This document shows, piece after piece, positions 5,493 to 26,038 of a stretch of 35,132 bases of DNA. Position numbers and translations under genes: made by a program. The notes under the pieces were generated by a model. That model saw only the letters and a list, made by a program, of their open reading frames with translations. It ran no database searches and was not told the origin of the DNA. Origin of the DNA: Pseudomonadota bacterium (lineage in GTDB: Bacteria > Bdellovibrionota_G > JALEGL01 > DATDPG01); the NCBI GenBank assembly GCA_043809315.1, contig JAZDDX010000033.1:1-35132 (forward strand), given 5' to 3'. Position 1 is the first letter of the stretch, and every line of letters starts with the position of its first letter.

Positions 5493-7451
5493 TTAGTCTC
5501 TCGCCGGTTGATTCCGGCGCCACTTGAGGACAACCGTTGCCAGCGGCGGCAGGTTGACCGTGACGGAGTGAGGCCGTCCATGCCACCATCGCGGCTCACT
5601 CCAGGTTCCCCCCAGGTTCCCGATATTCGATCCCCCGTAGACTTCGGAGTCGCTGTTTAACAGCTCCTCCCAGTGTCCCGCCTCGGGTACGCCGAGGATG
5701 TAGCTGTATCGGGGGACCGTTGTGAAGTTCGTCACGAAAAGGAGAATCTCCTCGCCGATTTCATCCCGGCGGATGAGGGAGATCGTGCTTTGCTCCGCGT
5801 CGTTGCAGTCGATCCACTCGAACCCGCGCGGTTCGAAATCGAGAACGGACATCGCCTTTTCGGTCCGATAGAGATGGTTCAGATCCCGGACCCACTGGCG
5901 CAATCCGGCGTGGTGCCGGTATTGGAGAACGTGCCACTCCAGGCTCTCCTCCACCACCCACTCCCGGAATTGCCCGAACTCCCCCCCCATGAAAAGGAGT
6001 TTCTTGCCGGACTGAGCGTACATGTACCCGAACAGCGCCCGCATGTTGGCGAACTGCTGCCATTGGTCCCCCGGCATCTTGCCGATCAACGAACCTTTCC
6101 CATGGGTTACCTCGTCGTGGGAAAGAGGGAGAACGAAGTTCTCGTGGTAGGCATAGAGCATCCGGAACGAGAGTAGATTGTGGTGGAATTTCCGATAGAT
6201 CGAATCCTTCGACATGTACTTGAGCGTGTCGTGCATCCACCCCATGTCCCATTTCATGCCGAACCCCAAGCCGCCGACATGGGTCGGCCGCGAAACCATC
6301 CCCCAGGAGGTCGACTCCTCGGCGATCGTCTGGACGTCCGGGTAGTTCCGGTAGATCTCTGCGTTCAACGTCCGGAGGAACTCGATCGCCTCGATGTTCT
6401 CCTTCCCGCCGTACTGGTTCGGAATCCACTCCCCCGCCTTGCGGGAATAGTCGAGGTAAAGCATCGACGCGACGGCATCGACCCGGATTCCGTCGGCGTG
6501 GAACCGATCCAGCCAGAAGAGGGCGCTGGAGATCAGGAAGCTCCGGACTTCGTTCCGGCCGTAATTGAAGATGTAGCTCTTCCAGTCCGGATGGAACCCT
6601 TTCCGGGAGTCGGCATGTTCGAATAGGTGCGTCCCATCAAAATCCCCCAACCCATGCCCGTCACAGGGAAAGTGGGATGGAACCCAATCGAGGATGACTC
6701 CCACACCCGCTTGGTGTAAGCAGTCTACGAAGTAGGCAAAATCTTCCGGATTTCCATACCGACTGGTAGGGGCGAAATACCCCAAGCTCTGGTACCCCCA
6801 GGAGAGGTAATAGGGGTGCTCCATGATCGGGAGGAGTTGGACATGGGTGAACCCCATCCACTTGCAATAATCGGCTAGTTTCGGACCCAGCTCACGATAG
6901 GTCAGTGACCGGTTCCCTTCCTCGGGGACCCTCATCCACGACCCCAGATGGACTTCATAGATTGAAATCGGAGCTTTGTGGGAGTTCTGGGTCCCCCGCG
7001 TCTGCATCCAGCTTCGGTCGCTCCAGCGGTGCTCCCCTTGCCAGACGATCGAGGCGCTTTTTGGCGGGGTCTCGAACATCCGGGCGAACGGGTCAGCCTT
7101 TTCCGCCTCATACCCGTGGAACTTCGACTTGATGAAGTACTTGTAGCAGGCACCGGTCGTGATCCCGGGGATGAATCCTTCCCAAATCCCTGACGAGCCG
7201 CGGTGGTGAAGAAGGGTGGCATACCGGTCCCACCGGTTGAAGTTCCCGATGACCGAGACATGCGTCGCATCGGGGGCCCAAACGGCAAAATAGGTTCCGT
7301 TGATACCGTTCACGCTGACCGGGTGGGACCCGAGCTTTTCGTAGAGACGGAAATGCCTTCCTTCGTTGAAGAGATGGATATCGTCGTTCGTCAGAAGGGA
7401 AAAACCTTCGCTCGTCCGACTGTCTCGTCCTTTTTCCATTGTCATTTCCAT
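5493..7451 (-). CDS. glgB: 1,4-alpha-glucan branching enzyme (GH13, short N-terminus type)
   Basis: FAVWAP, IYEVHLGSW, WGYQ, DWVPSHF; catalytic RVDAVASM, AEES and SHDEV motifs. The start is among ATG 7451, 7445 and 7439. Confidence 0.96.
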   Translation of the reverse strand: MEMTMEKGRDSRTSEGFSLLTNDDIHLFNEGRHFRLYEKLGSHPVSVNGINGTYFAVWAPDATHVSVIGNFNRWDRYATLLHHRGSSGIWEGFIPGITTGACYKYFIKSKFHGYEAEKADPFARMFETPPKSASIVWQGEHRWSDRSWMQTRGTQNSHKAPISIYEVHLGSWMRVPEEGNRSLTYRELGPKLADYCKWMGFTHVQLLPIMEHPYYLSWGYQSLGYFAPTSRYGNPEDFAYFVDCLHQAGVGVILDWVPSHFPCDGHGLGDFDGTHLFEHADSRKGFHPDWKSYIFNYGRNEVRSFLISSALFWLDRFHADGIRVDAVASMLYLDYSRKAGEWIPNQYGGKENIEAIEFLRTLNAEIYRNYPDVQTIAEESTSWGMVSRPTHVGGLGFGMKWDMGWMHDTLKYMSKDSIYRKFHHNLLSFRMLYAYHENFVLPLSHDEVTHGKGSLIGKMPGDQWQQFANMRALFGYMYAQSGKKLLFMGGEFGQFREWVVEESLEWHVLQYRHHAGLRQWVRDLNHLYRTEKAMSVLDFEPRGFEWIDCNDAEQSTISLIRRDEIGEEILLFVTNFTTVPRYSYILGVPEAGHWEELLNSDSEVYGGSNIGNLGGTWSEPRWWHGRPHSVTVNLPPLATVVLKWRRNQPARD

Positions 7452-7632
7452 TGGTTCGGTCCCCAAGCGTGAATCTGGCAGTGTACGCTTCGCTCGCCCG
7501 TTCGCAAGTCGAAGAGAGGCGCCCGTGACACGATCCGTCATCAACCTACTGAAATTGTTTTGTTTTTTCTTTCAAAGACCTCTGAAAACGCTACATTCCG
7601 GCCCGATTTCGCAATGCGGAGGTAGGTCCGGC

Positions 7633-9105
7633 ATGTACGTCACGATGATCGCCTCGGAGTGCGCTCCGGTCGCCAAGGTCGGCGGCCTGGGGGACGTCGT
7701 CTCCGGTCTGGCGCACGAGTTGGAGATCCGAGGCCACGCGGTCGAGATCATCCTCCCGAAATACGACTGCATGCGGTACGACCAAATCTGGGGGTTGCAG
7801 CAGACCTTCCAAGATCTTTGGGTCCCGTGGCACAACGGGCAGGTCCACTGCACCGTCTGGTTCGGCTTCGTCCACGGCCGAAAGTGCTTCTTCATCGAAC
7901 CGCACTCCCAGGATCAGTTTTTTAACCGGGGAAGCTTTTACGGGTTCTCGGACGAGGCGAAGCGGTTCGCTTTCTTCAGCAAAGCGGCGATGGAGTACCT
8001 CCTGAAGGCGGGAAAACGCCCCGACATCATCCATACGCACGATTGGCAGACCGCCCTTGTGCCGGTCCTCCTCTTCGAGATCTACGCCCACCACGGGATG
8101 GAAAAACAGCGGGTCTGCCACACGATCCACAACTTCAAGCATCAGGGGACCGCCAGCGCCGACATCCTGGTCGCCACGGGCTTAAACCGGTCCGACTACT
8201 TCTTTTCGACCGGCCGGATGCAGGACGACTTCAACCGGTCGGCCCTGAACTTCACGAAAGGGGCGATCCTCTACTCGAACTTCGTCACGACCGTCTCCCC
8301 CCACCATGCCTGGGAGGCGCTGAACTCCGACCAGGGGCACGGCCTCGGCCACACGCTGCACCTGAACCGGGCCAAGTTCGGCGGGATCTTAAACGGCCTC
8401 GATTACGACACCTGGAACCCGGGACTCGATCCGCACATCCCGCACCATTTCAGTGCCGGCCGGATCGACCCGAAGTACGGGAACAAAGAAGCGCTTCGCG
8501 ACCGTTTTTGGCTCCGGAAGGAGTTCAAACCGATCATCTCCTACGTGGGACGCCTCGACACACAGAAGGGGGTCCACCTGATCCGCCATGCGATCTACTA
8601 CTCCATCGCGAACGGAGCGCAGTTTGTCCTCCTCGGGACCAGCCCGGAAAGCGGGATCAATGACTATTTCTTCCATTTGAAGCGCCACCTAAACGACAAC
8701 CCCGACTGCCACTTGGAGCTCGGGTACGACGAGGAGCTTTCGCACCTCATCTACGCCGGTTCCGACATGGTGGTGATACCGAGCATGTTCGAGCCTTGTG
8801 GCCTTGCTCAGATGATCTCGCTCCGGTACGGAACCGTTCCGATCGTGCGCGCGGTCGGCGGGTTGGCCGACACCGTCTTCGACAAGGATCACTCCGACCG
8901 CCCCCCCGAAATGCGAAACGGTTTCGTCTTCGACCATTCCGACCACGCCGGTCTCGAGTCGGCCCTGACGAGGGCGATCGGTCTCTGGTACCTCCATCCG
9001 GACGAATTTCGAAAACTTATGGTCAACGGGATGCGGGCCGACTATTCCTGGAATCAACCGGGACAGCATTACATCGATATCTATGAGTTTATCCGGCACA
9101 AATAG
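7633..9105 (+). CDS. glgA: Glycogen synthase (GT5)
   Basis: GGAGG RBS; SECAPVAKVGGLGDV, HTHDWQ, RL..QKG, PSMFEPCGL.Q and VGGL.DTV motifs. Confidence 0.96.
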   Translation: MYVTMIASECAPVAKVGGLGDVVSGLAHELEIRGHAVEIILPKYDCMRYDQIWGLQQTFQDLWVPWHNGQVHCTVWFGFVHGRKCFFIEPHSQDQFFNRGSFYGFSDEAKRFAFFSKAAMEYLLKAGKRPDIIHTHDWQTALVPVLLFEIYAHHGMEKQRVCHTIHNFKHQGTASADILVATGLNRSDYFFSTGRMQDDFNRSALNFTKGAILYSNFVTTVSPHHAWEALNSDQGHGLGHTLHLNRAKFGGILNGLDYDTWNPGLDPHIPHHFSAGRIDPKYGNKEALRDRFWLRKEFKPIISYVGRLDTQKGVHLIRHAIYYSIANGAQFVLLGTSPESGINDYFFHLKRHLNDNPDCHLELGYDEELSHLIYAGSDMVVIPSMFEPCGLAQMISLRYGTVPIVRAVGGLADTVFDKDHSDRPPEMRNGFVFDHSDHAGLESALTRAIGLWYLHPDEFRKLMVNGMRADYSWNQPGQHYIDIYEFIRHK

Positions 9106-10420
9106 CGCCGTCGCGATCGCGCTTCACATGCACCAACCGCTGATTCCCGCGGGTGGCGGCGATCTCCGGACCGCGGCGATCATCGGGAACTTGCAGTACA
9201 TGATGGAGCACCCGGGAGAAGGGGACAACCACAACGCGCCGGCTTTTCTCCGCTGTTATCAGCGGATAGCGGAGTTCATTCCGCAGCTCGTCGCGGAGGG
9301 AAAACAGCCGCGGATCATGTTGGAGTACTCCGGAACACTCCTTTACGGCTTGAAACAGATGGGCGCCGGATATGTTCTCGACGATCTCCGGAAGATTACG
9401 TGCGACCCCGCCTTTGCTCCATCGGTGGAGTGGCTCGGAGCCCCGTGGGGGCATGCGGTGGCACCGTCGACACCGGTCCAGGACTTCCGTCTCCACGTCC
9501 AGGAGTGGCGGCGATATTTCTCTGAACTGTTCGGAACGGAGGTGCTCGCAAAAGTTCGCGGGTTCTCACCGTCGGAGATGGCGCTCCCGAACCATCCCGA
9601 CGTGGCGTACGAGTTCGTCCGGACGCTTCGCGACTGCGGATACACCTGGGTTCTGGTGCAGGAACATACGGTCGAGCAGCCGCACGACGGCCGGACGCCG
9701 GAGCGCCGCCACCTCCCTCATCGGCTCGTCTGCCGGAATTCGTCCGGACAAGAAGCCTCGATCATCGCGATCGTGAAAACGCAGGGGAGCGACACGAAGC
9801 TGGTCGCCCAGATGCAGCCGTATTACGAGGCGAAAGGTCTTTCCCCCTGGGAGGTGGCCGGGAGACAGGTCCCTCCGCTCGTGACCCAGATCGCAGACGG
9901 GGAGAACGGCGGGGTCATGATGAACGAATTCCCGGGGAAATATTTCGAGGTGGTTCGTGAGAGCGCCGGCTCGCCGTGCCGACTTGTGAACGTCGGCGAG
10001 TATCTCGACCATCTTGCTTCGCTCGGAATCACGGAGAACGATCTTCCGCCGCTCCAGCCGCTCTTCCAGAAGGCAATCTGGGACCGTTTCAAGCCGGGTG
10101 AGGAACCTGAGAGATTGGCCAGCGTCATCGAGGATCTTCGAAAAGAGAACCCCAAGTTCCACATGGAGGGAGGGAGCTGGACGAACAACCTCTCCTGGGT
10201 GCGCGGATATGAGAATGTCCTCGGTCCGTTGGACGAGGTGAGTTCGCGGTTCTACGAAAAGATCATCCTGCCGGGTGTGCCGCGGTCCGATCCGCACTAC
10301 CAAAACGCGCTCTTTCATCTGCTCGTCTGCCAAACCAGTTGTTACCGGTACTGGGGGCAAGGGCTCTGGACCGACTACGCCCGTGAACTCTGCCGCCGTA
10401 CTCTTTCGATATTGGAATAA
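9083..10420 (+). CDS. Glycoside hydrolase family 57-like protein
   Basis: LHMHQP (region 1), LEYSGTLL, GFSPSEM (putative nucleophile Glu) and IADGENG (putative acid/base Asp); overlaps the glgA stop. Confidence 0.85.
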   Translation: MSLSGTNSAVAIALHMHQPLIPAGGGDLRTAAIIGNLQYMMEHPGEGDNHNAPAFLRCYQRIAEFIPQLVAEGKQPRIMLEYSGTLLYGLKQMGAGYVLDDLRKITCDPAFAPSVEWLGAPWGHAVAPSTPVQDFRLHVQEWRRYFSELFGTEVLAKVRGFSPSEMALPNHPDVAYEFVRTLRDCGYTWVLVQEHTVEQPHDGRTPERRHLPHRLVCRNSSGQEASIIAIVKTQGSDTKLVAQMQPYYEAKGLSPWEVAGRQVPPLVTQIADGENGGVMMNEFPGKYFEVVRESAGSPCRLVNVGEYLDHLASLGITENDLPPLQPLFQKAIWDRFKPGEEPERLASVIEDLRKENPKFHMEGGSWTNNLSWVRGYENVLGPLDEVSSRFYEKIILPGVPRSDPHYQNALFHLLVCQTSCYRYWGQGLWTDYARELCRRTLSILE

Positions 10421-14784: not shown

Positions 14785-16830
14785 TTATTTCGTCGCTGTC
14801 CAGCGGTTGAGCCAATCGAGGACCGTCTGGTGCCAGAGACGCGAGTTCTGCGGCTTGAGGACCCAGTGCCCCTCGTCCGGGAAGTAGAGAAGCTTGCTCG
14901 GGATCCCGCGCCGCTGGAGAACGTTGAACGTGGAAAACCCTTCCGTCTCGACCACGCGGAAATCTTTCCCGCCATGGATCACGAGCGTCGGCGTCTTCCA
15001 CTTCGCAACGTTCGCCATCGGCGAGTTCTTCCGGTAGACCTCCCCCTTCTCCCACGGCGGGCCGGTCATATCCCACTCGGGGAACCAGAGCTCTTCGGTG
15101 TTGTAGTACGAACTTACCGTGTCGAAATCGCCGTCGTGGTTGACGAGGCAGGCGAACGGATGATCCTGGCCGGCGATCCAGTTGACCATGTACCCGCCGA
15201 ACGAAGCGCCGAGCGCGCAGATCCTCTTCTTGTCGATGAACGGATACCTCTTGAGAACTTCCGCAAGTCCCGCCATCAGATCGGAGTACGGCCCCGGCCC
15301 CCAGTTGCCGCGGATCGCGTCGGTGAACGGCTGGCCGTACCCGGTCGAACCGCGGAAGTCGATCGCAACGACCGCGTATCCAGCCCCCGCGTAGAACTCC
15401 GGATTCCACCGGTAGTGGAAGCTGTCTTCCCACGAACCTTGCGGGCCGCCGTGAATCAGGAACGCCAGCGGATAGCTCTTCCCCGATTGGAACCCCGCCG
15501 GCTTCACGAACCAGCCGTGCAGTTTCCTGCCGTCGTTCGAAAACCAAAACTCTTCCGTTTCACCGAAACGGATCTGCCCCAGCCGTTCTCCGTTGACCGA
15601 ACTGATCTGCGTCTCTTTCGAGGTTGTGGGGTTGAAACGACAGATCTCTTTCGGCTGGGTCATTCGTTCTTTCAGGAATAGAAGCGACCCGTTCTTCAAG
15701 ACACGGAGAGTACTGTTCGTTCCGACCGAGACCAACCTCCGGACGTTGCCGCTCGAAAGCTCGATCGAAAAGATCTTCCCGCACCCCTCTTCTCCCGCCG
15801 TCACGAAAACCGTCTTTCCGTCGGGGGAGAAGACCATCTGGTCGACCGACCGGTACCACGACCGGGCCAGGTCCAGCTTCCGCCCGCTTGCAAGGTCGTA
15901 AAGGACGATCCTTCGCTGATCCGCCTCGTACCCGGGGCGATCCATCATGAGATACGCGAGCGTCTTCCCGTCGGGGGAGAAGACCGGGTTCGTGTCGAAG
16001 GCGAGGTTCTCCGTCGTGATCGACTTCGGCTTGGCGCTCCCGTCCGACGGCACCAGATAGATGTCGGTGTTCGTCTTCCACGCCTCCCCTTCGGCCGCCT
16101 TGGAGGTAAAGGCGATCTGTTTCCCGTCGGGCGACCAGGCGATCTCCTCCGATCCGCCGAACGGCTTCGTCGGACTGTCTTGATCGATCCCCGCCATGAG
16201 ATCGATCGGTTTTTTCTCGTCGAGCGCCATGACGAAGAGATGATTCGGCCGCCCGTCGTTCCACTCGTTCCAATGACGGATGAAGAGGGACTCGAAGATC
16301 TTCGCCTTGACCTTCGACTCCTCGCGTTCCTTGATCCTTTTCGCCGTGCAATCGAGGTCTTTGCAGTCGACGAACACCGAACTCCAGAACAGGATCGTCT
16401 TCCCATCCGGGGAGAGTTCGAAGCCGTCGATATCGACCGGGAGATCGGTCACCTTGATCGGTTCGCCGCCGGAGAGCGACATCCGGTAGATCTGAGACGA
16501 TCCGCCGCGCGCAGAGAGAAAGAGAATTTCGGATCCGTCCGGAAGCCAGCGACCGTTCGAGTCGGATGCGGGATCGACCGTCAGGCGCTGGAGCGTCTTC
16601 CCGTCGGCTGAGATCAACCCGAGGTCGGTGTTCGACTTGTTCGCCTCGACGTTGTTCTCCCCTCTCGCGAAGAGGATCCGGGTCCCGTCGGGACTCGGCT
16701 GTGGATCGGAAACACGGATCATCGAGATCAGGTCGTCCCAGGCAAACGGATGAGTTTCCGCCCAACTGTTTCCCGTCACGAAGAGAAGGGAAAGCAGGGT
16801 GAATGGAATCCAGGTGTTCCTTCGTTTCAT
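14785..16830 (-). CDS. Secreted S9-family peptidase (dipeptidyl/acylaminoacyl peptidase) with PD40-like propeller
   Basis: Signal peptide; repeated W/F-SPDG units; IHGGPQG, nucleophile GASFGG, HGGKDFRV (Asp) and PDEGHWV (His). Confidence 0.93.
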   Translation of the reverse strand: MKRRNTWIPFTLLSLLFVTGNSWAETHPFAWDDLISMIRVSDPQPSPDGTRILFARGENNVEANKSNTDLGLISADGKTLQRLTVDPASDSNGRWLPDGSEILFLSARGGSSQIYRMSLSGGEPIKVTDLPVDIDGFELSPDGKTILFWSSVFVDCKDLDCTAKRIKEREESKVKAKIFESLFIRHWNEWNDGRPNHLFVMALDEKKPIDLMAGIDQDSPTKPFGGSEEIAWSPDGKQIAFTSKAAEGEAWKTNTDIYLVPSDGSAKPKSITTENLAFDTNPVFSPDGKTLAYLMMDRPGYEADQRRIVLYDLASGRKLDLARSWYRSVDQMVFSPDGKTVFVTAGEEGCGKIFSIELSSGNVRRLVSVGTNSTLRVLKNGSLLFLKERMTQPKEICRFNPTTSKETQISSVNGERLGQIRFGETEEFWFSNDGRKLHGWFVKPAGFQSGKSYPLAFLIHGGPQGSWEDSFHYRWNPEFYAGAGYAVVAIDFRGSTGYGQPFTDAIRGNWGPGPYSDLMAGLAEVLKRYPFIDKKRICALGASFGGYMVNWIAGQDHPFACLVNHDGDFDTVSSYYNTEELWFPEWDMTGPPWEKGEVYRKNSPMANVAKWKTPTLVIHGGKDFRVVETEGFSTFNVLQRRGIPSKLLYFPDEGHWVLKPQNSRLWHQTVLDWLNRWTATK

Positions 16831-16834
16831 TAGA

Positions 16835-18358
16835 TCAGCCCTCCAGTGGCCCGACGGTTTCTTCGACCGCCTTTAAGATTTCGAGGCTCTTGACGAGCGC
16901 AGCCATCGTGTTGTGGTCCTTGAAGAGGGGGCGGTCCTCCTCGAGATGGGTCACGTGTTTTCGGATCACGCCGTGCGCCGCCTTCGTCCCCTTCCCGACC
17001 TTGAACTCGCGAAAATCGATCGCTTGCGCAGCCGCCATAAATTCGATCCCCAAGACAGCCTGGCCGTTCTCGAGGATCCGGTGGTTCTTGTGTGCCGTGT
17101 TCATCCCCATGCTGACGAAATCCTCCTGGTCGGCCGCCGCCGGGATCGACTGGACGAACGCCGGCTGCGAGAGGGTCCGCTGTTCCACGATCAGCATGTC
17201 GGCGGTGTACTGGCTCAGCATGAAGCCGGAGAAGAGCCCCGCATTGCTCGTCAAGAACGGCGGGAGCCCCTGACTTAAGGCTTCGTTCAGAAGGCGGTTC
17301 AGACGCCGCTCGGAGAGAACCGAGACCATCGCGACCGCCGCGCCGAGCGTGTCGAGCGGCATGCTGATCGGCGTGGCCTGGAAGTTGGCGCCGGTGTAAA
17401 CGACATCCTCATCGGGAACGAAGAGCGGGTTGTCGGCCGCCCCGTTGAGCTCGATCTCGAACTGTTTCCGGGTGTGGTGCAGTTGATCTCGCACCGCCCC
17501 GATCACCTGCGGGGTCGAGCGCATGCTGTAGGCGTCCTGGAGCTTCGTCTTCACCTTGGCGATCAGGTCACTCCCATCGATTATGGTGCGAAGATTCTTC
17601 GCCGAGGCGATCGCCCCGGGAAAGCCGCGCTCCTTGTGTAAGCGTTCCTGATAAGGACGCATGTTCGCCTTGAGCGCCTCGAGACTCATCGCAGCCGCGA
17701 TCTCTGCCTGTTTCAGCCACCGTTCGATGTCGTAGCACTGGAGGCACCCGATCCCTAAGATGACGTTGCTCCCGTTGATCGACGAGAGGCCGTCGCGCGG
17801 CTTCAAACCCGGCACCGGAATCCCGGCTTTCCGAAACGCCTCTATTCCTGAGAGCCTTTCCCCCCGATAAAACGCCTCCCCCTCCCCGAGCATGACAAGC
17901 GCGAGCTGGCTCATCGGTGCAAGGTCCCCGCACGCTCCGACGGAACCGTGCGTGCAGACGACGGGGGTGACCTGCTTGTTGAGCATCTCAACGAACGTCT
18001 GTGTGATTTCCGGGCGGCAGCCCGAAAGTCCGATTGCGTGGACGTTGGCCCGGCTCAGCATCGCCGCGCGGATGATCTCCAGGGGAAACGGTTCCCCGAT
18101 CCCAGCCGCGTGGTTGTAGATCAGGTACTTTTGAAATTCGTCCTGCTGGGCAGGGGTGAGGATGACGTCGACCAGGTTCCCGATCCCGGTGTTGATTCCG
18201 TACATCGGGGTCCCCTTTTGGATCCGGGTTTCGACCATCTTCCGGCAGGTCTTGATCCGATCGAGAGCGTCGGAGGCAAGTTCCACCTTCTCCCCGAACC
18301 GCGCCACCGCAACGACATCGTCCGCTCTGAGCCCTTTTCCCCTGATCTGAATCGTCAT
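16835..18358 (-). CDS. hutH: MIO-dependent aromatic amino acid ammonia-lyase, histidase-like, with an Ala-Cys-Gly cofactor tripeptide
   Basis: YGINTG (Tyr53), His83, GSVGACGDL (142-144), Asn195, QDAYSMR, DNP, NF and QED.VSMG (Glu412); GGAG RBS; FTCD gene nearby. Confidence 0.8.
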   Translation of the reverse strand: MTIQIRGKGLRADDVVAVARFGEKVELASDALDRIKTCRKMVETRIQKGTPMYGINTGIGNLVDVILTPAQQDEFQKYLIYNHAAGIGEPFPLEIIRAAMLSRANVHAIGLSGCRPEITQTFVEMLNKQVTPVVCTHGSVGACGDLAPMSQLALVMLGEGEAFYRGERLSGIEAFRKAGIPVPGLKPRDGLSSINGSNVILGIGCLQCYDIERWLKQAEIAAAMSLEALKANMRPYQERLHKERGFPGAIASAKNLRTIIDGSDLIAKVKTKLQDAYSMRSTPQVIGAVRDQLHHTRKQFEIELNGAADNPLFVPDEDVVYTGANFQATPISMPLDTLGAAVAMVSVLSERRLNRLLNEALSQGLPPFLTSNAGLFSGFMLSQYTADMLIVEQRTLSQPAFVQSIPAAADQEDFVSMGMNTAHKNHRILENGQAVLGIEFMAAAQAIDFREFKVGKGTKAAHGVIRKHVTHLEEDRPLFKDHNTMAALVKSLEILKAVEETVGPLEG

Positions 18359-18432: not shown

Positions 18433-18885
18433 TTATTTGGGCGAAGCAATCAGCCGATTGAGGCGCTGCGCGAGGGTGCGAAGTTCTTTCGGGACATCGC
18501 TCCCATCCCACCATGTGACCTCGTGGTCGGCCCCCTCTTCGCTCACCTTCAGCGTGTATCGGAACGTATCGCGACCCTTATTCACCGTGCGAAGACTGTC
18601 CAAGCTTTCGAGATCGAGTGAATCCAAAAGACTGATCAGGGTATCGACGGAGCTGCTCGGAAGTTGGAAATAGATCCGAGCCGCTTTTTCCTTCTTCAGG
18701 GAGATCCCGCCGCGGGGGAGATCGACGGTCGCCTTGCGATCTACCTTCAGTTGTCCGCCGTGTTGTTCGAACGTCAGGATGCGCGGCAAGATCGTGCTGC
18801 GTTTCTTGGTCTGCTGTGCCAACGCGATGGAAATCGTCCCCACAAGAACGAATGCGATCAGAGATGGAACGATGGTTCTTCTCAT
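18433..18885 (-). CDS. Secreted protein resembling emfourin (M4 protease inhibitor-like)
   Basis: Signal peptide; FEQHGG near the N-terminus and GRDTFRYTLKVSEEG..HEVTW.D...VPKELRTL at the C-terminus; ATGA overlap with the upstream gene. Confidence 0.55.
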   Translation of the reverse strand: MRRTIVPSLIAFVLVGTISIALAQQTKKRSTILPRILTFEQHGGQLKVDRKATVDLPRGGISLKKEKAARIYFQLPSSSVDTLISLLDSLDLESLDSLRTVNKGRDTFRYTLKVSEEGADHEVTWWDGSDVPKELRTLAQRLNRLIASPK

Positions 18886-19961
18886 AAAGCCGGTTCCAAG
18901 AGTTCGTCGTTCGCGATCCAGGCGGCGAAATACGCCTTGAGCCCCTTCGGGGTCTTCTGAGCAAGGATCACCAGGAACGGGGGATCGAACTGGTAGTTCC
19001 GCGGTCCCCCCCCTCTTGTCACCATGATCGTCCCGCTCGACTTGAGCAACGCCCCTTCCTTGTTCAGAACGAACTTGATGTCGTGGATCGCCGCCGCGAT
19101 CGAATAGTCGGAGTGAACGATCGGCTTCACCATTTCCGCGTAATTCTTCCGGATGTTCAGGCCGATCACGGGAACGCGCAAGCCGCTGTTCGGAACGAAA
19201 TCATCCCCATCCCCTTTCACCGAGGCAACCGCTTCATCGATCATCTCTTTCAGGGTCGGCTTCGCGTCGTTGACTTTGAGGAGGATGATCGTGTCGTACC
19301 TCTTCGCGTAATCCTTGGGACGCAATTCCACGACGGTGTGGGAGTACGAACTGTCGTGGATCCGGATCTGCGAAGCGATCGACGCCTGCCCCTTCGATCC
19401 CGCCTTGAATAGGCCGATTCCGAAGCTCTTGATCGGCGCCGGCACGTGGGTTTTCTCGTCCCAGTAATCGAGATCGACATCTTCGAACGGTTTTGCAAAC
19501 TCGAGATTCTTGAACAGATACGCGTAGGCGAGGATGTCGTCCGGTCGTAAGAGATTCACCGCGACCTTGGGCGCGTCGCTTCCAAATTTACCTTGTAATC
19601 CCTGGTTGATCTTGTCGACGATGTCGTCTTTTTTCATTCCCGCCATCGCGAAACGATCGGGGGATGGCACGTCGAAGAAATACGGGTCAACGTCGTTGAG
19701 CGCGTCGGACCAGTTAGACTGTCCTTTCAGCTTCAGCGGAAGCGCCCGGTCGAAGACCTTCACCTCCCCCAAAACATTCCAGGCATGAGCCATCGTGTCG
19801 CAATAGATCTGGTTCCTCTCGGCGTTGAACTTGAGCGTCGGAGCCGGCACTACGTCGGTTCGTTTGAAGTCGTTCGCATCTTTTGGCGTCTCGGCTGCAG
19901 AGGAGGTCCCGACAACGACCAATGCGAAAAGAAACGGAACAACTCTTCTTGGGAGGGTCAT
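18882..19961 (-). CDS. Secreted divergent serpin-like protein
   Basis: Signal peptide. The C-terminal HDIKFVLNKEGALLKSSG...PRNYQFDPPFLVIL.....YFAAWI parallels the serpin pattern H.a.i.V.EEG.E / F..d.PF; LEFAKPF parallels W..pF. Confidence 0.55.
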   Translation of the reverse strand: MTLPRRVVPFLFALVVVGTSSAAETPKDANDFKRTDVVPAPTLKFNAERNQIYCDTMAHAWNVLGEVKVFDRALPLKLKGQSNWSDALNDVDPYFFDVPSPDRFAMAGMKKDDIVDKINQGLQGKFGSDAPKVAVNLLRPDDILAYAYLFKNLEFAKPFEDVDLDYWDEKTHVPAPIKSFGIGLFKAGSKGQASIASQIRIHDSSYSHTVVELRPKDYAKRYDTIILLKVNDAKPTLKEMIDEAVASVKGDGDDFVPNSGLRVPVIGLNIRKNYAEMVKPIVHSDYSIAAAIHDIKFVLNKEGALLKSSGTIMVTRGGGPRNYQFDPPFLVILAQKTPKGLKAYFAAWIANDELLEPAL

Positions 19962-20036: not shown

Positions 20037-20276
20037 GTGATTTCCGAGAGTTCCAAACCTCCCGTTCGCGTGATCGACAGTCTCTGGACGTTCGTCCTCG
20101 CCGTCTGCGTCGTCGGACCGCTTGCGCTCCCGCTCTTCTGGCGGAACCCGCGCTTCTCCCGTCAGACGAAAGTGATCGTTTCGATCGTGGTGATCCTATT
20201 TACGGTGCTGTTGACGATCTTCGCGGGAGCGTTGATCGGATATCTGACCGGTCAGCTCGCGGATTTCGCGGGCTAA
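20037..20276 (+). CDS. Small 2-TM membrane protein (about 79 aa)
   Basis: GTG start after an extended -10 (TGTTAGGAT); VGPLALPLFWRNPRFS..K between two hydrophobic segments. Confidence 0.65.
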   Translation: MISESSKPPVRVIDSLWTFVLAVCVVGPLALPLFWRNPRFSRQTKVIVSIVVILFTVLLTIFAGALIGYLTGQLADFAG

Positions 20277-21316
20277 GGTTTTCGTTCCACTTTCGGCATT
20301 CGCGGACCCCTGCCCGGACCCTGAGGTCCGCGTCCCGGCGGCCCACCCCGCCCTCCATCCGGCCTCGGCCCTCGCGGACCTTGCGGAGGGCGTCCCCCGG
20401 CAGCAGTTCGCGGCGGTCCGTCCCCGCGCGGCGGGCGCGGGGGGAATCCTGGACGGTCGGGACGCCCGGCCCCTGCCCTGGGAGCCCCTCCTCGCGGACC
20501 TTTCCGGTCCCCACGATCGTCCCTTTTTCCCTTGCCCCCTCTTCCTCGACCACCTCGTCGATCATCCTCCCGGGGAGGGGGTTCCGGTCGATAGAGATAT
20601 TCCAGCACGTAGACAAAATCGCCGATCTTCCGGCCGAACTTCGGGAGAGGTTCATCCTCTTTGTCCGGTTTGAACAGGACGACGCGGCGGAGGCGATCGA
20701 GGTTCTTTGGATCGATCAGATCGAACACCGTCATCGCCTGCGCGATCCGCTCGTCGCTCCACTGATACTTCTCCTTGATCTTCGCGGTCAGCGGCCCTTT
20801 CACCGCCTCGAGAAGCGCGAACATCTCCTTCTTCCGGCGCTCGAAATCCCTCTTCTTCCGCTCCTCGAACTCCGCCATCCGCTGCTCGACGCTCTTGATC
20901 CGCGGATCTTGATTTGGATTCGCCTCCTGTGGAGGTAGAGCTGGCGGTTCTTCGACCACCGGTTCGGCGGGAGCGGCATCGACTGGCACCTCTTCGGATG
21001 CCGGAGCCTCGGGAGCGACTTCCAGAGGAGGCTCGGGGATCGATTCGACGACCGGTTCCGGCTCCGCCGGTGGAGCGGTCTCCTCCGACGCGGTCTCTTC
21101 GGGAGGGGATTCGGGTGCAGCCGTTTCCTCGGTTGGCGGGGGCGGTGAGTCCTCTGGGACCGGAGCCGCTTCCGCTACCGGCGCACTCTCCGGTTTCACG
21201 ACCGACTTCGGCGGCCGCTTGAGCCACTTCTCCTTTCGCGCCGTCTCGACCAGCTCGGCACACCATCGATAGATTTCCCGGAGAGGAATCCCCGGAATCT
21301 CGGTGAAGGTTTTCAC
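20273..21316 (-). CDS. Hypothetical protein with a Pro/Glu-rich linker and an RGG/Pro-rich disordered tail
   Basis: AAGGAG RBS plus GTG; acidic low-complexity region, charged coiled coil, small globular domain, then an RGG-rich C-terminus. Confidence 0.8.
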   Translation of the reverse strand: MKTFTEIPGIPLREIYRWCAELVETARKEKWLKRPPKSVVKPESAPVAEAAPVPEDSPPPPTEETAAPESPPEETASEETAPPAEPEPVVESIPEPPLEVAPEAPASEEVPVDAAPAEPVVEEPPALPPQEANPNQDPRIKSVEQRMAEFEERKKRDFERRKKEMFALLEAVKGPLTAKIKEKYQWSDERIAQAMTVFDLIDPKNLDRLRRVVLFKPDKEDEPLPKFGRKIGDFVYVLEYLYRPEPPPREDDRRGGRGRGGKGKRDDRGDRKGPRGGAPRAGAGRPDRPGFPPRPPRGDGPPRTAAGGRPPQGPRGPRPDGGRGGPPGRGPQGPGRGPRMPKVERKP

Positions 21317-21985: not shown

Positions 21986-23665
21986 TCAACTTGTTACGCA
22001 GATCTTCCAGACGGCGTCGGCCGCGCTCCGCGCCCTCGCCAGAAGCTCCTCCGCGCGTTTTCCCAGCCGGTTGGCAACCGCGCGGTCCTTGAGGGTGGCG
22101 ATGTTGATCTTGACGTTCAGGTACGCCCCTTCCGCCCCGGCACGTGCCATCGATGCGGCCACACCGGCATCACTTCGAGAGGAAGGGTTCCCTTTTTCCG
22201 CCACGACCTTCGCCAAATCCAGGATCGCCGGCATCTTCTCGAGAACGGAAAGCGGAACTTCAGCGGCCCCCCGCGTCGCCTCTTCGATCGCGGCCAAACG
22301 GACGCTCTCCTGCTCCGATGTCCCTTTTGGCAGGCGAAACGCCTCCATCACCTTATCAAACGCCTCAGTATCCCGATCGACGGCGGCAACCAACTCGTTC
22401 TTGAGCTCCTGCCCCCGAACGGCGACTTGGACCATCTCCTCGTGAACCGCGGCGAACTTCTTTTTCCCCTGCGTCAGGTTCGCAACCATCGCTGAAAGTC
22501 CGGCCGCGAGAGAACCTGCGAGAGCCGCGACGCTCCCCCCTCCAGGAGTCGGGGTTTCGGTCGAGCACTCATCCACGAATTGCGAAACCGGCATCGAAAC
22601 CAAACGACCCATACGACCCTCCAATCGGTATTCGATCACTTTCTCTTTCGGTACGAACGGCGACAGCTCACGCAGACCGAGCGACTGAACGGCCGTCTCT
22701 ACCAGATACGACTCGGGGACTCCCCATGATCGCCGCTGTTTTTTCAAATAGAATTTTCCGGCATCGAGAAGCGCATCGAGCGGAATCAACCCGACCAGTT
22801 CGCTCCCGGTCACGCGGACGCCGAGCTTTTCCGCCTCCTCGCAACAGGTTTCGAATGCAACGTGCGGCGGGGTCGCACGGAAATCGGTCAGGTTGATCGA
22901 GATCTGCGCGCGGTTGTACGCGTCGATGTACCAGCCGGTCGCCTTGCACGCCTTGAGCCGCCCGACCGTCCGCAACGGTTTCCCGTCCGGTCCATTCACA
23001 GGCTGACCGTTGACATCTTTCACCGGCCGGCCGCTCTCCCGGATGTTCCCGGAGATTTCGTTGGCGATCTTCGTGTCGCGTGTGTTGAGGTTCACGTTGT
23101 AGGCGATCAGGAACGGGCGGACGCCGATCACCGTGGCCCCCGACTTCGCTTGAAACTCTTTCGGGCCGAAGTCCGGTTTCCACTTCGGATCTTTCATCTT
23201 CGCCGCGAGCCCTTCGTATTCGCCGGCCCGGATGTCGGAAAGGTTCCGACGGTACGGGGCCGATGCCGCCGCCTCATAGAGATAAACTGGAATCGAAAGC
23301 TTTTCCCCAACCCGTTTCCCCAGACGCCGGGCCAACTCCACACATTCTTGTTCCGTGATTCCGGAGATCGGGACGAACGGACAAACGTCGGTCGCCCCCA
23401 TTCGGGGGTGCGCGCCATGGTGCCGCCGCATGTCGATCAATTCGGATGCCTTTTGAATCGCCCGGAACGCCCCCTCGACGATCGCATCGGGAGATCCGAC
23501 TGCGGTCACGACAGTCCGGTTCGTATCGGCCCCGGGATCAACGTCGAGGACGGTTACGCCTTGAACCTCCGCCATGGAGGCGACGATCCGGTCGATCTTC
23601 GCACGGTCCACCCCTTCGCTGAAGTTCGGAACGCACTCGACGATCGCTTTCTGAACTCCGGTCAC
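21986..23665 (-). CDS. ftcd: Bifunctional glutamate formimidoyltransferase / formimidoyltetrahydrofolate cyclodeaminase
   Basis: VECVPNFSEG, H.G.HPRMGA.DVCPF, LIAYNVNL and GSELVGL; cyclodeaminase part TPGGGS.AA and D.D..AF. Probable GTG start at 23665. Confidence 0.95.
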   Translation of the reverse strand: MTGVQKAIVECVPNFSEGVDRAKIDRIVASMAEVQGVTVLDVDPGADTNRTVVTAVGSPDAIVEGAFRAIQKASELIDMRRHHGAHPRMGATDVCPFVPISGITEQECVELARRLGKRVGEKLSIPVYLYEAAASAPYRRNLSDIRAGEYEGLAAKMKDPKWKPDFGPKEFQAKSGATVIGVRPFLIAYNVNLNTRDTKIANEISGNIRESGRPVKDVNGQPVNGPDGKPLRTVGRLKACKATGWYIDAYNRAQISINLTDFRATPPHVAFETCCEEAEKLGVRVTGSELVGLIPLDALLDAGKFYLKKQRRSWGVPESYLVETAVQSLGLRELSPFVPKEKVIEYRLEGRMGRLVSMPVSQFVDECSTETPTPGGGSVAALAGSLAAGLSAMVANLTQGKKKFAAVHEEMVQVAVRGQELKNELVAAVDRDTEAFDKVMEAFRLPKGTSEQESVRLAAIEEATRGAAEVPLSVLEKMPAILDLAKVVAEKGNPSSRSDAGVAASMARAGAEGAYLNVKINIATLKDRAVANRLGKRAEELLARARSAADAVWKICVTS

Positions 23666-23691
23666 CGCGCGAATTAATCCCAAATGAACGC

Positions 23692-25196
23692 CTATTTGGC
23701 AAGCCGCTTCCACAGGAAGTAAACCGGGATCCCGCTCAAGACAATCACCAGCCCCGGCCAGGTGGTCTGCGTCTTATAGAGCGCGAGGACGACGATCAGG
23801 ATCGAAGCCCCCCCGATGTAGAGCGCCGGAAGAAACGGGTAGCCGAACGCTTTGTACGGCCGCTCCGCGTCCGGGCGTTTTTTCCGAAGGATGAAGAGGC
23901 CGATGATCGTCAGGACGTAAAAGATCAGGACCGAGAAGATTACGTAGTCGAGGAGGTTGCTGTAGAGGTTCCCATACGTCACCGTACCGTCCGCTCCGTG
24001 AATGATCGTTCGAGGAAGAACCAGGAGGACCGCCCAGATCCCCTGCAGCACCAACCCAGCCGCCGGGACATGGTTCTTGTTCAGCGTGCCGGTGGCGCGG
24101 AAGAAAAGTCCGTCCTTCGCCATCGCGTAATAGACCCTGGCGCCGGACAGGATGATCCCGTTGTTGCATCCGAACGTCGAGATCACGATTGCGATCGCCA
24201 TCAGGACCGCGCCCGCATCTCCAAAAATCACTTTGAGAGCCGCCGTCGCAACCCGGTCGTCAGCGGCGGAGGCGATCTCCGGCATCCGAAGAACACTCAA
24301 GTAGGCGACGTTCGAAAGAAGGTAGATCACGGTGACCAGCCCGGTCCCGATCGCCAGCGCCAGCGGAAGGTTCCGCTTCGGGTTTTTCACCTCCCCCGCC
24401 GTGAAGGTGATGTTGTTCCAGGCGTCGGAGGCAAAGAGCGACCCGACCTGCGCAACGCAAAGGGCGATCAGAAGGCCGAAAAATCCGTCCGTCGCCGAGA
24501 CCGTCGGAAGGAACGAGAAGTCCGGGCGAACCGGGACGACATCGCGGGGAGTCCAACCCGAACCGAAGTTCGCCGCGACGACATCGACGTTCCGAGCGAT
24601 CACGACTCCGATCACGATCAATGCGATCAACGCAAGGGTCTTCGCCGACGTGAAGATGTTCTGGATGATCTTCCCCGTCCGTAACCCCCGCGTGTTGAGA
24701 TAGGTGAGAAGAGCGATCACGAGGACCGCCACCAACTGTTGTGTCGAGAAGCTCACCGCGTAGTTCTGGGAAAGATGGATCGGCGGGATCAGGAACGACG
24801 TCGGGGAGACCGGCGGGACCAGGACTCCCAGGAAGCGCGAGAAGGCAACCGCGACCGCCGCGATCGTCCCGGTTTGGATTACCAGAAATTGCGCCCATCC
24901 CCAGAGGAAACCCCAGAGAGGAGAGTACGACTCCTTCAGGTAGACGTATTGCCCCCCGCCTTCGGCATCATCGCCGCAAGTTCGCCGTAGGAAAGTGCCG
25001 CCGCGCAGGTCAGAAAACCGGTCACGATCCAGCAGATCATCAGCCAATACGGGGATCCGAGATTCCGCGTGATGTCGGCGGATACGATGAAGATCCCCGA
25101 CCCGATCATCGATCCGGCGACGATCATCGTCGAATCCCAGAGACCCAACCCCTGGACGAACCCTTCCTTGGACGGCTGCGTGTCGTTCTGTGCCAT
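23692..25196 (-). pseudogene. APC-family amino acid permease split by a -1 frameshift in a G6 run (pseudogene, phase variant or sequencing error)
   Basis: The N-terminal frame (GSMIGSGIF...YGELAAMMPKAGG) and the C-terminal frame (QYVYLKESY...) join into one 501-aa protein if one G is added at 24952-24957. Confidence 0.85.
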
Positions 25197-25225
25197 GATG
25201 GATTCTTACGATACGCTGGCCGCGG

Positions 25226-26038
25226 ATGTTGTCCAAGCGAACGAGAAGAATTCTCGGGTATAGTGCGGCCGGATTGACCGCCTTCGCTCTCCTCCCCCGA
25301 CTTCTTGCCGACCGGCTCCTCTACTTTCCGGAGAGGCGATACGATTCCCGTCCGGAAATGTACCGAATCCCCTACGAAGAGGTCCGTCTCACGACCGAAG
25401 ACGGCGTGAAGCTCCACGCCTGGTGGACCGGCGAACCGTCCCAAAAGACCACGGTTCTCTTCTTCCACGGCAACGCCGGAAACATCAGCCACCGCTTGGA
25501 GCGCATCCTCACGCTCCACTCTCTGAAGGTCCGGTTCTTTCTCCTTGGATACCGGGGGTACGGAGAGAGCGAGGGGAAGCCGAAGGAGGACGGGCTCTAC
25601 CGGGACGCGACGGCGGCGTACCGGTACCTCATGGATCACGGCGTGCCGGCGAAGAACCTCTACCTCTTCGGCGAATCGTTGGGTGGGGCCGTCGCGATCG
25701 AACTGGCCACGCGTCTTCCGGTGGCCGGTCTGATTCTCGAAAGCACGTTCACCTCCGTCCGGGAGATGGCCTGGCTTCACTACCCGTTCTTCCCCTCCCT
25801 CATCGTCCCGGACCAGTTTCCGTCGCTTGCGCGGATTCCGAAGATCCGCTCAAAATTCTTGATCGTCCACGGCAATCACGACGAGATCGCGCCGTTTTCG
25901 ATGGGCGAACGACTGTTTGCGGCTGCCAACGAACCGAAATCGTTCTTTCCGGTCCCCGGCGCGGGGCACAACGACGTCTATGTCGTCAGTGGAAGAGCGT
26001 ATATTGATCGGATCGCCAACTTTCTCGAGAACCGATAA
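25226..26038 (+). CDS. Alpha/beta hydrolase (Bem46/ABHD13-like) with N-terminal anchor
   Basis: FHGNAGN, YRGYG.S.G.P.E.GLY.DA, nucleophile GESLGG, HG..DEI and GAGHND. Confidence 0.92.
   Translation: MLSKRTRRILGYSAAGLTAFALLPRLLADRLLYFPERRYDSRPEMYRIPYEEVRLTTEDGVKLHAWWTGEPSQKTTVLFFHGNAGNISHRLERILTLHSLKVRFFLLGYRGYGESEGKPKEDGLYRDATAAYRYLMDHGVPAKNLYLFGESLGGAVAIELATRLPVAGLILESTFTSVREMAWLHYPFFPSLIVPDQFPSLARIPKIRSKFLIVHGNHDEIAPFSMGERLFAAANEPKSFFPVPGAGHNDVYVVSGRAYIDRIANFLENR

Follow-up and report, generated by a model that had tools for sequence, protein, structure and literature searches.

Ala-Cys-Gly in place of Ala-Ser-Gly in a widespread natural clade of putative histidine ammonia-lyases

The stretch of DNA analysed here (the window, 35,132 nucleotides (nt) long) covers positions 1 to 35,132 of contig JAZDDX010000033.1 in genome assembly GCA_043809315.1, which derives from a Pseudomonadota bacterium placed by GTDB in Bdellovibrionota_G. 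On its minus strand, at 16835..18358, it carries an open reading frame (ORF) of 507 amino acids (aa) with an ATG start and a match to PF00221, which encodes a lyase of the histidine ammonia-lyase (HAL) family; we refer to the group to which this lyase belongs as the NFQ/Ala-Cys-Gly clade. Alignment to the Ala-Ser-Gly of Pseudomonas putida HAL, the precursor of the 4-methylideneimidazole-5-one (MIO) cofactor, places the tripeptide A142-C143-G144 (codons GCG-TGC-GGG; 17927..17935, minus strand) at this position, and the protein contains ...THGSVGACGDLAPMSQ... The plus strand reads CCCGCACGC at 17927-17935, the reverse complement being GCG TGC GGG, so that A142 is encoded at 17933-17935, C143 at 17930-17932 and G144 at 17927-17929. 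In the HMMER alignments to 1gkm and 1gkj the segment 'gsvgaCgdlap' of the lyase pairs with 'gsvgaSgdlap' of the P. putida enzyme. Where assignment to EC 4.3.1.3 looks for an Ala-Ser-Gly tripeptide, the lyase thus has Ala-Cys-Gly instead. Directly 3' of the tripeptide lies D145 (GAC, 17924..17926, minus strand), which we take to have a role in MIO formation and which shows no variation in an alignment of 28 clade sequences hand-picked from 120 homologues. A D145A mutant of P. putida HAL is represented in the PDB (1gk3).

The remaining catalytic and substrate-binding positions were assigned by alignment and lie on the same minus strand. Y53 (18200..18202) is the catalytic base on the mobile loop, which reads YGINTGIG. 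N82-H83 (18110..18115) is the clade's version of the 'Ser-His' (SH) motif of HAL substrate recognition, as this motif is described in PMC11432326, and H83 is retained. N195 is encoded at 17774..17776, and the carboxylate-binding, MIO-side residues Q274, Y277 and R280 at 17519..17539, followed by S281 (17516-17518). The segment A324-N325-F326-Q327 (17378..17389) gives GANFQ for GGNFH, F326 being equivalent to F329 of P. putida HAL, and D410-Q411-E412-D413-F414 (17117..17131) gives DQEDF for NQEDH, with E412 equivalent to the imidazole-binding Glu414. The catalytic Tyr of the lid loop, the equivalent of Asn195, the carboxylate-binding Gln/Tyr/Arg set, the imidazole-recognising H83 and E412 and the conserved Met (M380) are therefore all present. 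In terms of the P. putida HutH numbering, Y53, H83, N195, Q277, Y280, R283, F329, M382 and E414 pair with Y53, H83, N195, Q274, Y277, R280, F326, M380 and E412 of the lyase, which includes every residue reported to be essential or substrate-binding in HALs. Roles for these residues are given in PMC11432326 and bioRxiv 10.1101/2025.08.13.670108, the former describing the GkHAL equivalents Tyr52, N194 and E411 as essential. An earlier reading made from the letters of the window (the sequence-only reading) had noted the Ala-Cys-Gly at the MIO position, intact catalytic residues (Y53, H83, N195, Y277, R280 and E412) and altered neighbouring motifs (GINTGIG, YNH, GANFQ and DQEDF). Our alignments agree with all of these assignments and add Q274, F326 and M380.

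The full-length protein matches PF00221 with an E-value of 2.4e-162 and 541.3 bits against a cut-off of 27.3, residues 10-467 lying on profile positions 1-466, and it passes the NCBIfam HAL subfamily PRK09367 (NF006871) with 539.1 bits against a cut-off of 524. None of the NCBIfam equivalogs for Tyr and Phe ammonia-lyases and 2,3-aminomutases is passed by the lyase, which scores 385 vs 501 for the Tyr 2,3-aminomutase, 329 vs 700 for the FlxA tyrosine ammonia-lyase, 220 vs 519 for the phenylalanine ammonia-lyase (PAL), and 343 vs 800 and 131 vs 1250 for the Phe aminomutases. An AlphaFold2 model of the lyase (pLDDT 84.9, pTM 0.89) finds the HAL structures 7tqr, 6v6h and 1b8f as its top fold matches (TM 0.84-0.89). 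The HAL of Thermoplasma acidophilum (7tqr) is the best PDB match both by sequence (E 1.5e-91, residues 3-497) and by fold; it differs from the lyase in its canonical SH, GGNFH and NQEDH motifs and in an MIO modelled from the standard triad. P. putida HutH (1b8f, 1gkm and mutants) resembles the lyase in fold (TM 0.88-0.89), in length and in the position of the tripeptide.

Cys143 is found well beyond this contig. Among the 120 best database homologues (67-100% identity) the tripeptide is ACG in 116 and ASG in 4. A scan of GTDB, with one genome per species and two clade-specific peptides (QDAYSMRS and IPAAADQE), matched at least 596 stretches, of which at least 576 were confirmed; the carriers belong to the Acidobacteriota, Chloroflexota, Bacteroidota, Elusimicrobiota, Ignavibacteriota, Pseudomonadota, Cloacimonadota, Vulcanimicrobiota and other phyla. 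From the confirmed carriers 80 species loci were retained, on which all locus counts given here are based. They carry ACG in 70, ASG in 9 and SSG in one case. The cysteine is encoded by TGC in 54 loci and by TGT in 16, while the ten Ser codons fall into the two Ser codon families (AGC 6, TCC 4), each a single substitution away from TGC. A 229-nt contig from a subsurface metagenome also spans the site. It departs from the window at 18 positions, 17 of them third codon positions and none within the three codons; the support that it lends is weak, since its depth is low (2.5) and the run is possibly the source sample or a related one.

These data bear on the explanation that TGC is an assembly or sequencing error or the gene a pseudogene in decay. 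A draft genome assembled from a metagenome (44 contigs), with thin read support at the site, would be compatible with an error. Against this stand the Cys state in 116/120 homologues and 70/80 species loci, a reading frame that is intact, full length and covered to 100% in comparison with the homologues, and the third-position bias of the differences from the related contig (17/18). We regard this explanation as effectively refuted by the conservation data. In L087 the gene seems interrupted, but only because 120 N mask part of its sequence. Ser-Ser-Gly is found in one clade member alone, from a metagenome-assembled genome (MAG) of the Terriglobia (L056:7892-11527); its open frame measures 649 aa and follows immediately on IS21-type genes (Mu-transposase C-terminal domain and IstB), and the same genome holds an additional canonical HAL adjoining hutU.

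A FastTree phylogeny of 220 rows (the 80 loci, 120 close homologues and 20 hand-picked representatives) recovers the clade at support 99 with respect to the canonical HALs. Its deepest branch is P0123, which carries Ser, followed by P0121 with Cys, and the crown group comprises 186 Cys, 14 Ser-type and one SSG row. The triad changes state between Cys and Ser at least eight times among the 200 in-group rows. The motifs GxNTGIG, YNH, GANFQ and DQEDF do not vary in the 28 aligned clade sequences, across which G144, D145, N195 and F326 are constant as well, and they occur in every crown-clade row of a representative alignment. The latter consists of 132 of the 150 best 50%-identity representatives, 18 having been removed for length, and shows the triads ASG (108), SSG (11), ACG (6), CSG (2) and TSG (1), with none in 4. 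For comparison we used 84 canonical representatives, picked with patterns requiring xSG and NFH, so that figures for positions 143 and 327 in this set are circular. Position 82 is Asn in 100% of the 200 clade rows and Ser in 94% of the canonical representatives; P0121 and P0123, the two deepest branches of the clade, retain Ser-His. The lyase thus belongs to a monophyletic group whose YNH/GANFQ/DQEDF signature is constant in the sampled members, as the sequence-only reading had supposed when it proposed a distinct clade instead of a single mutation. Of the pattern that it proposed to look for, GACGD conserved in a monophyletic clade with the signature, the monophyly and the signature held but not the cysteine, which is separable from the signature: the Ser-bearing clade members keep the signature in full, P0123 combines Ser with GANFQ/DQEDF, and ACG also occurs in P0226, an otherwise canonical HutH outside the clade (650.6 vs 539.15 on the hutH equivalog).

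The clade residue S281 replaces a Cys that stands next to the carboxylate-binding Arg (R283) in 99% of the 84 canonical representatives. This gives the appearance of a Cys/Ser swap between two active-site-adjacent positions, 143 and 281, which are not strictly coupled. We rejected the idea that Cys143 is tied to the signature or to C284S. At positions 143/281 the 132 representatives show S/C in 112, C/S in 3, C/C in 3 and S/S in 2 cases, with Ser occupying both sites in P0123 and Cys both in P0226. A second case of ACG outside the clade is found in P0171 and P0180. The two make up a small lineage of their own, in which Leu occupies the Tyr280 position and the motif reads NSEDH. Both features otherwise belong to the triad-less (ergothionase-like) P0204, P0224 and P0249, and the pair may stand midway between lyases with and without MIO.

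The genetic context of the lyase fits histidine degradation. Its genome (2.42 Mb, 44 contigs, 96% complete) has a single PF00221 match, the window lyase, and encodes urocanase (hutU) and hutI on contig C16 in genes that overlap by 4 nt. In the window itself, a gene for the bifunctional FTCD, the last step from His to Glu (21986..23713, minus strand; PF07837, PF02971, PF04961), and upstream of it a gene for an APC-family amino-acid permease (23692..25236, minus strand; PF13520, PF00324) lie 3.6 kb upstream of the lyase, with four ORFs between. In this genome the lyase is thus the sole candidate to catalyse the opening step of a complete route from His to Glu, and the histidine-type context that the sequence-only reading had drawn from FTCD and the permease is reinforced. 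Of the 80 carrier genomes, 77 encode urocanase. The clade lyase is the only PF00221 gene in 48 of the 80 (including G079, where two matches represent one gene split by masked N), and 46 of these 48 have urocanase. Of 14 control genomes five contain PF00221, and PF01175 passes its cut-off in the same five.

Direct linkage to hut genes is seen in a small number of loci. In five of the 80, hutU follows 69-180 nt downstream of the lyase on the same strand, and three of these five also have hutI; a sixth hutU-adjacent case, in G057, was obtained from genome coordinates (total 6/80). A GntR/UTRA (HutC-type) regulator gene stands directly upstream of the lyase in L070 and L076, and a HisRS gene adjoins it in two Bacteroidota-type MAGs (L013:8140-9516 and L035:3779-5215). 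A Pfam scan of 216 flanking ORFs covered 63 of the 80 loci, the other 17 being lost where a crude gene caller missed the lyase ORF in high-GC DNA. The recurring families are urocanase (5 loci), HflX (3), PIG-L (3), and HisRS, HutC-type regulator, canonical HAL and fumarase (2 each), and no cluster of flanking ORFs is common to more than five of the 80 loci.

Based on these data we consider it probable, at roughly 75%, that the lyase is a functional histidine ammonia-lyase, converting L-His to trans-urocanate and NH3, and that it stands for a separate, widespread subfamily of the HAL/PAL enzymes in which MIO is made from Cys with loss of H2S. The formation of MIO from Cys, the release of H2S and the use of L-His as substrate are what we infer. 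The amide nitrogen of Gly144 would attack the carbonyl of Ala142 with autocatalytic loss of water, and the side chain of residue 143 would be removed by beta-elimination, leaving as H2S, a chemically easier leaving group, and not as H2O. If the side chain is eliminated in this way, the mature cofactor would be identical to the one derived from Ala-Ser-Gly. An equivalent mature cofactor is the most economical reading of the alignments, in which Cys and Ser interchange repeatedly with all else unchanged and G144, D145, N195 and F326 are invariant; the Cys-derived MIO with H2S loss suggested by the sequence-only reading is favoured on the same grounds. Cys143 is a genuine, natural and conserved variation on a known cofactor system, and after maturation the lyase would most likely be an ordinary histidine ammonia-lyase. 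Its urocanate would pass to HutU and HutI, encoded on contig C16, and on to FTCD, with glutamate as the end product. An engineered S143C variant of P. putida HAL, in which the cysteine was introduced by design and is not natural and clade-wide as here, reportedly matures into active enzyme (work attributed to Langer, Lieber and Retey, 1994). According to PMC3903478, S143A lowers activity more than 1000-fold.

Several observations weigh against this reading. On the hutH equivalog (TIGR01225) the lyase reaches 500.7 bits, short of the cut-off at 539.15. The clade differs from the 84 canonical representatives, and likewise from P. putida HutH, at 46 clade-fixed positions, several of them beside active-site residues; these changes include S82N in the 'SH' motif, L149M, H151Q, G324A, H414F, H327Q and C284S (S281 here). 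For 74 of the 80 carriers there is no adjacent hut gene. The precedent for Cys maturing to MIO is the reported result with the engineered P. putida S143C, and the PDB copy searched holds no structure from the Cys/NFQ clade, the nearest entry, 7tqr, being a canonical ASG enzyme. Moreover, 25 of the 80 carrier genomes contain a second PF00221 gene that scores 597-674 bits, the range of canonical HutH, the canonical identity being verified for the copies of L034 and L053 only. In 7 of these 25 genomes the canonical copy stands beside hutU, and in 3 two-copy genomes (G010, G062 and G068) the ACG-type does. In two Cloacimonadota MAGs (L034:4746-7862 and L053:96-3209) a canonical hutH (Ala-Ser-Gly, GGNFH and NQEDH) stands in tandem behind the ACG-type lyase gene, on the same strand. 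In L034 the ACG-type reaches 505.9 bits on the hutH equivalog, missing the cut-off like the window lyase, and its canonical neighbour 714.1 bits; the tandem loci have no other hut gene nearby, and hutU lies on another contig.

All of the second copies, the tandem pairs, the position of hutU, the clade-fixed differences such as S82N and the missed equivalog would suit an alternative in which the Cys/NFQ clade is a diverged paralogue. Such an enzyme would have kept MIO and would act on another imidazole-bearing primary amine, for instance a methylated or otherwise modified His, or would be a kinetically or regulatorily distinct isozyme beside canonical HutH. We think this unlikely. The clade lyase is the sole PF00221 gene in its own genome and in 47 other carriers, yet urocanase is present in 46 of these 48; in 5-6 loci it takes the place of hutH in an operon of the type hutC-hutH-hutU or hutH-hutU-hutI; the imidazole contacts H83 and E412 and all carboxylate contacts are unchanged; and the 216 flanking ORFs of 63/80 loci offer no alternative conserved neighbour. 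A closely related view, to which we give a similarly low probability, is that the ACG/NFQ clade constitutes a second, functionally distinct MIO lyase that generates its electrophile by desulfhydration and has a substrate preference or regulation of its own. It would explain why about a third of the carriers keep a canonical HutH too, twice in tandem, and why changes in the active-site region (S82N, H151Q, C284S, H327Q and H414F) are fixed. The coexistence of both types could mean subfunctionalisation. An altered substrate, one of the options of the sequence-only reading, is not indicated for the genome of the window and is possible for genomes that also hold a canonical HutH.

It is far less probable still that Cys143 is retained in the mature protein, the enzyme being MIO-less like ergothionase and the histidine-betaine lyases, or carrying another sulfur-containing electrophile, and acting on a substrate with a better leaving group. 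In favour of this, bioRxiv 10.1101/2025.08.13.670108 and 10.64898/2026.04.22.720169 describe MIO-less PF00221 members with the same Tyr/His/Glu/Arg set, and ergothionase (6s7j) is a clear relative of the lyase by sequence and fold. The MIO-less trimethylammonia-lyases (TdETL, 6s7j, and the Shewanella histidine-betaine lyases) share with the lyase the PF00221 fold, the Tyr base, the His/Glu imidazole contacts and the Arg/Gln/Asn carboxylate contacts; they differ in having no tripeptide and in requiring a trimethylammonium leaving group. The MIO-less representatives in our alignment show gaps ('Y--') where the tripeptide would be, as in P0204, P0224 and P0249, whereas the lyase has x-Cys-Gly-Asp there, keeps the x-Gly-Asp context and every MIO-supporting residue, and belongs to a clade in which G144, D145, N195 and F326 are invariant. 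Repeated interchange of Cys and Ser without other change would be hard to explain if the thiol were functional, and the co-occurrence with urocanase and the placement in hut operons indicate histidine. The reading as a histidine ammonia-lyase with MIO built from Cys is the one that we prefer.

The sequence-only reading had also raised redox-sensitive maturation, for which no significant link to oxidases emerged. A haem-copper oxidase (PF00115, E <= 1e-20) is found in 10/10 Ser-type and in 44/70 Cys-type carriers (Fisher one-sided p = 0.0145), and the genome of the window combines Cys143 with a PF00115 match. With four phylogenetically independent contrasts, of which one or two point in the same direction and none in the opposite one, the sign test is not significant; we therefore rejected a redox or oxygen link, which is left as a weak lead only.

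Natural variation of the precursor tripeptide is accepted for its first position (Peng et al. 2022, PMC9002059), and SSG, CSG and TSG are seen among our representatives too. In those published variants the first residue differs, whereas in the lyase it is the central residue, which becomes the exocyclic methylidene. PMC3903478 calls ASG 'strictly conserved', and bioRxiv 10.64898/2026.04.22.720169 has it required 'in all so far characterized' enzymes; a Cys at the central position is mentioned in none of these papers. A natural Ala-Cys-Gly MIO enzyme was not described in the literature searched, with most subscription journals outside its coverage. The present clade, spread over at least 576 GTDB species genomes in many mostly uncultured phyla, has Cys in nature at the position from which the reactive methylidene arises. 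Confirmation would establish the building of MIO with H2S loss as an ordinary route in nature rather than an oddity of mutants. Since the hutH equivalog cut-off is missed, annotation pipelines assign the generic label 'aromatic amino acid ammonia-lyase', and histidine catabolism is therefore under-called in the carrier lineages. The clade offers ready natural Cys/Ser pairs for studies of MIO maturation, and the tandem pairs of ACG-type and canonical enzyme allow subfunctionalisation to be tested. Since the mature enzyme is probably an ordinary one, the impact in practice is modest.

In the window, a secreted-looking S9 (prolyl-oligopeptidase family) peptidase gene (14785..16830, minus strand) starts 4 nt past the lyase stop and is probably co-transcribed with it. 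Upstream of the lyase on the same strand, at 18433-19961, lie two ORFs, one of 359 aa that matches no Pfam family and whose N-terminus is signal-like, and one of 150 aa that is Emfourin-like (a protease-inhibitor family). By tblastn the S9 peptidase, the Emfourin-like protein, the 359-aa ORF, FTCD and the permease were found as neighbours in 0/80 related loci. In the two Anaerolineales MAGs L070 (6198-8981) and L076 (6161-8926) the hutC-like/lyase/hutU cluster is flanked by a divergent xanthine-dehydrogenase-family molybdoenzyme gene and is followed by an X-Pro dipeptidyl-peptidase gene in L070 and by an MmgE/PrpD-family gene in L076. Further ORFs of the window include one of 347 aa at 20273-21316, with no Pfam match; the last third of its protein forms a low-complexity tail, extremely rich in Pro, Gly and Arg, with PRGG/GRGG repeats. 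At 5493-10420 the window carries a glycogen-metabolism cluster that consists of a branching enzyme (CBM48 and alpha-amylase), a starch/glycogen synthase (Glyco_transf_5) and a GH57 enzyme.

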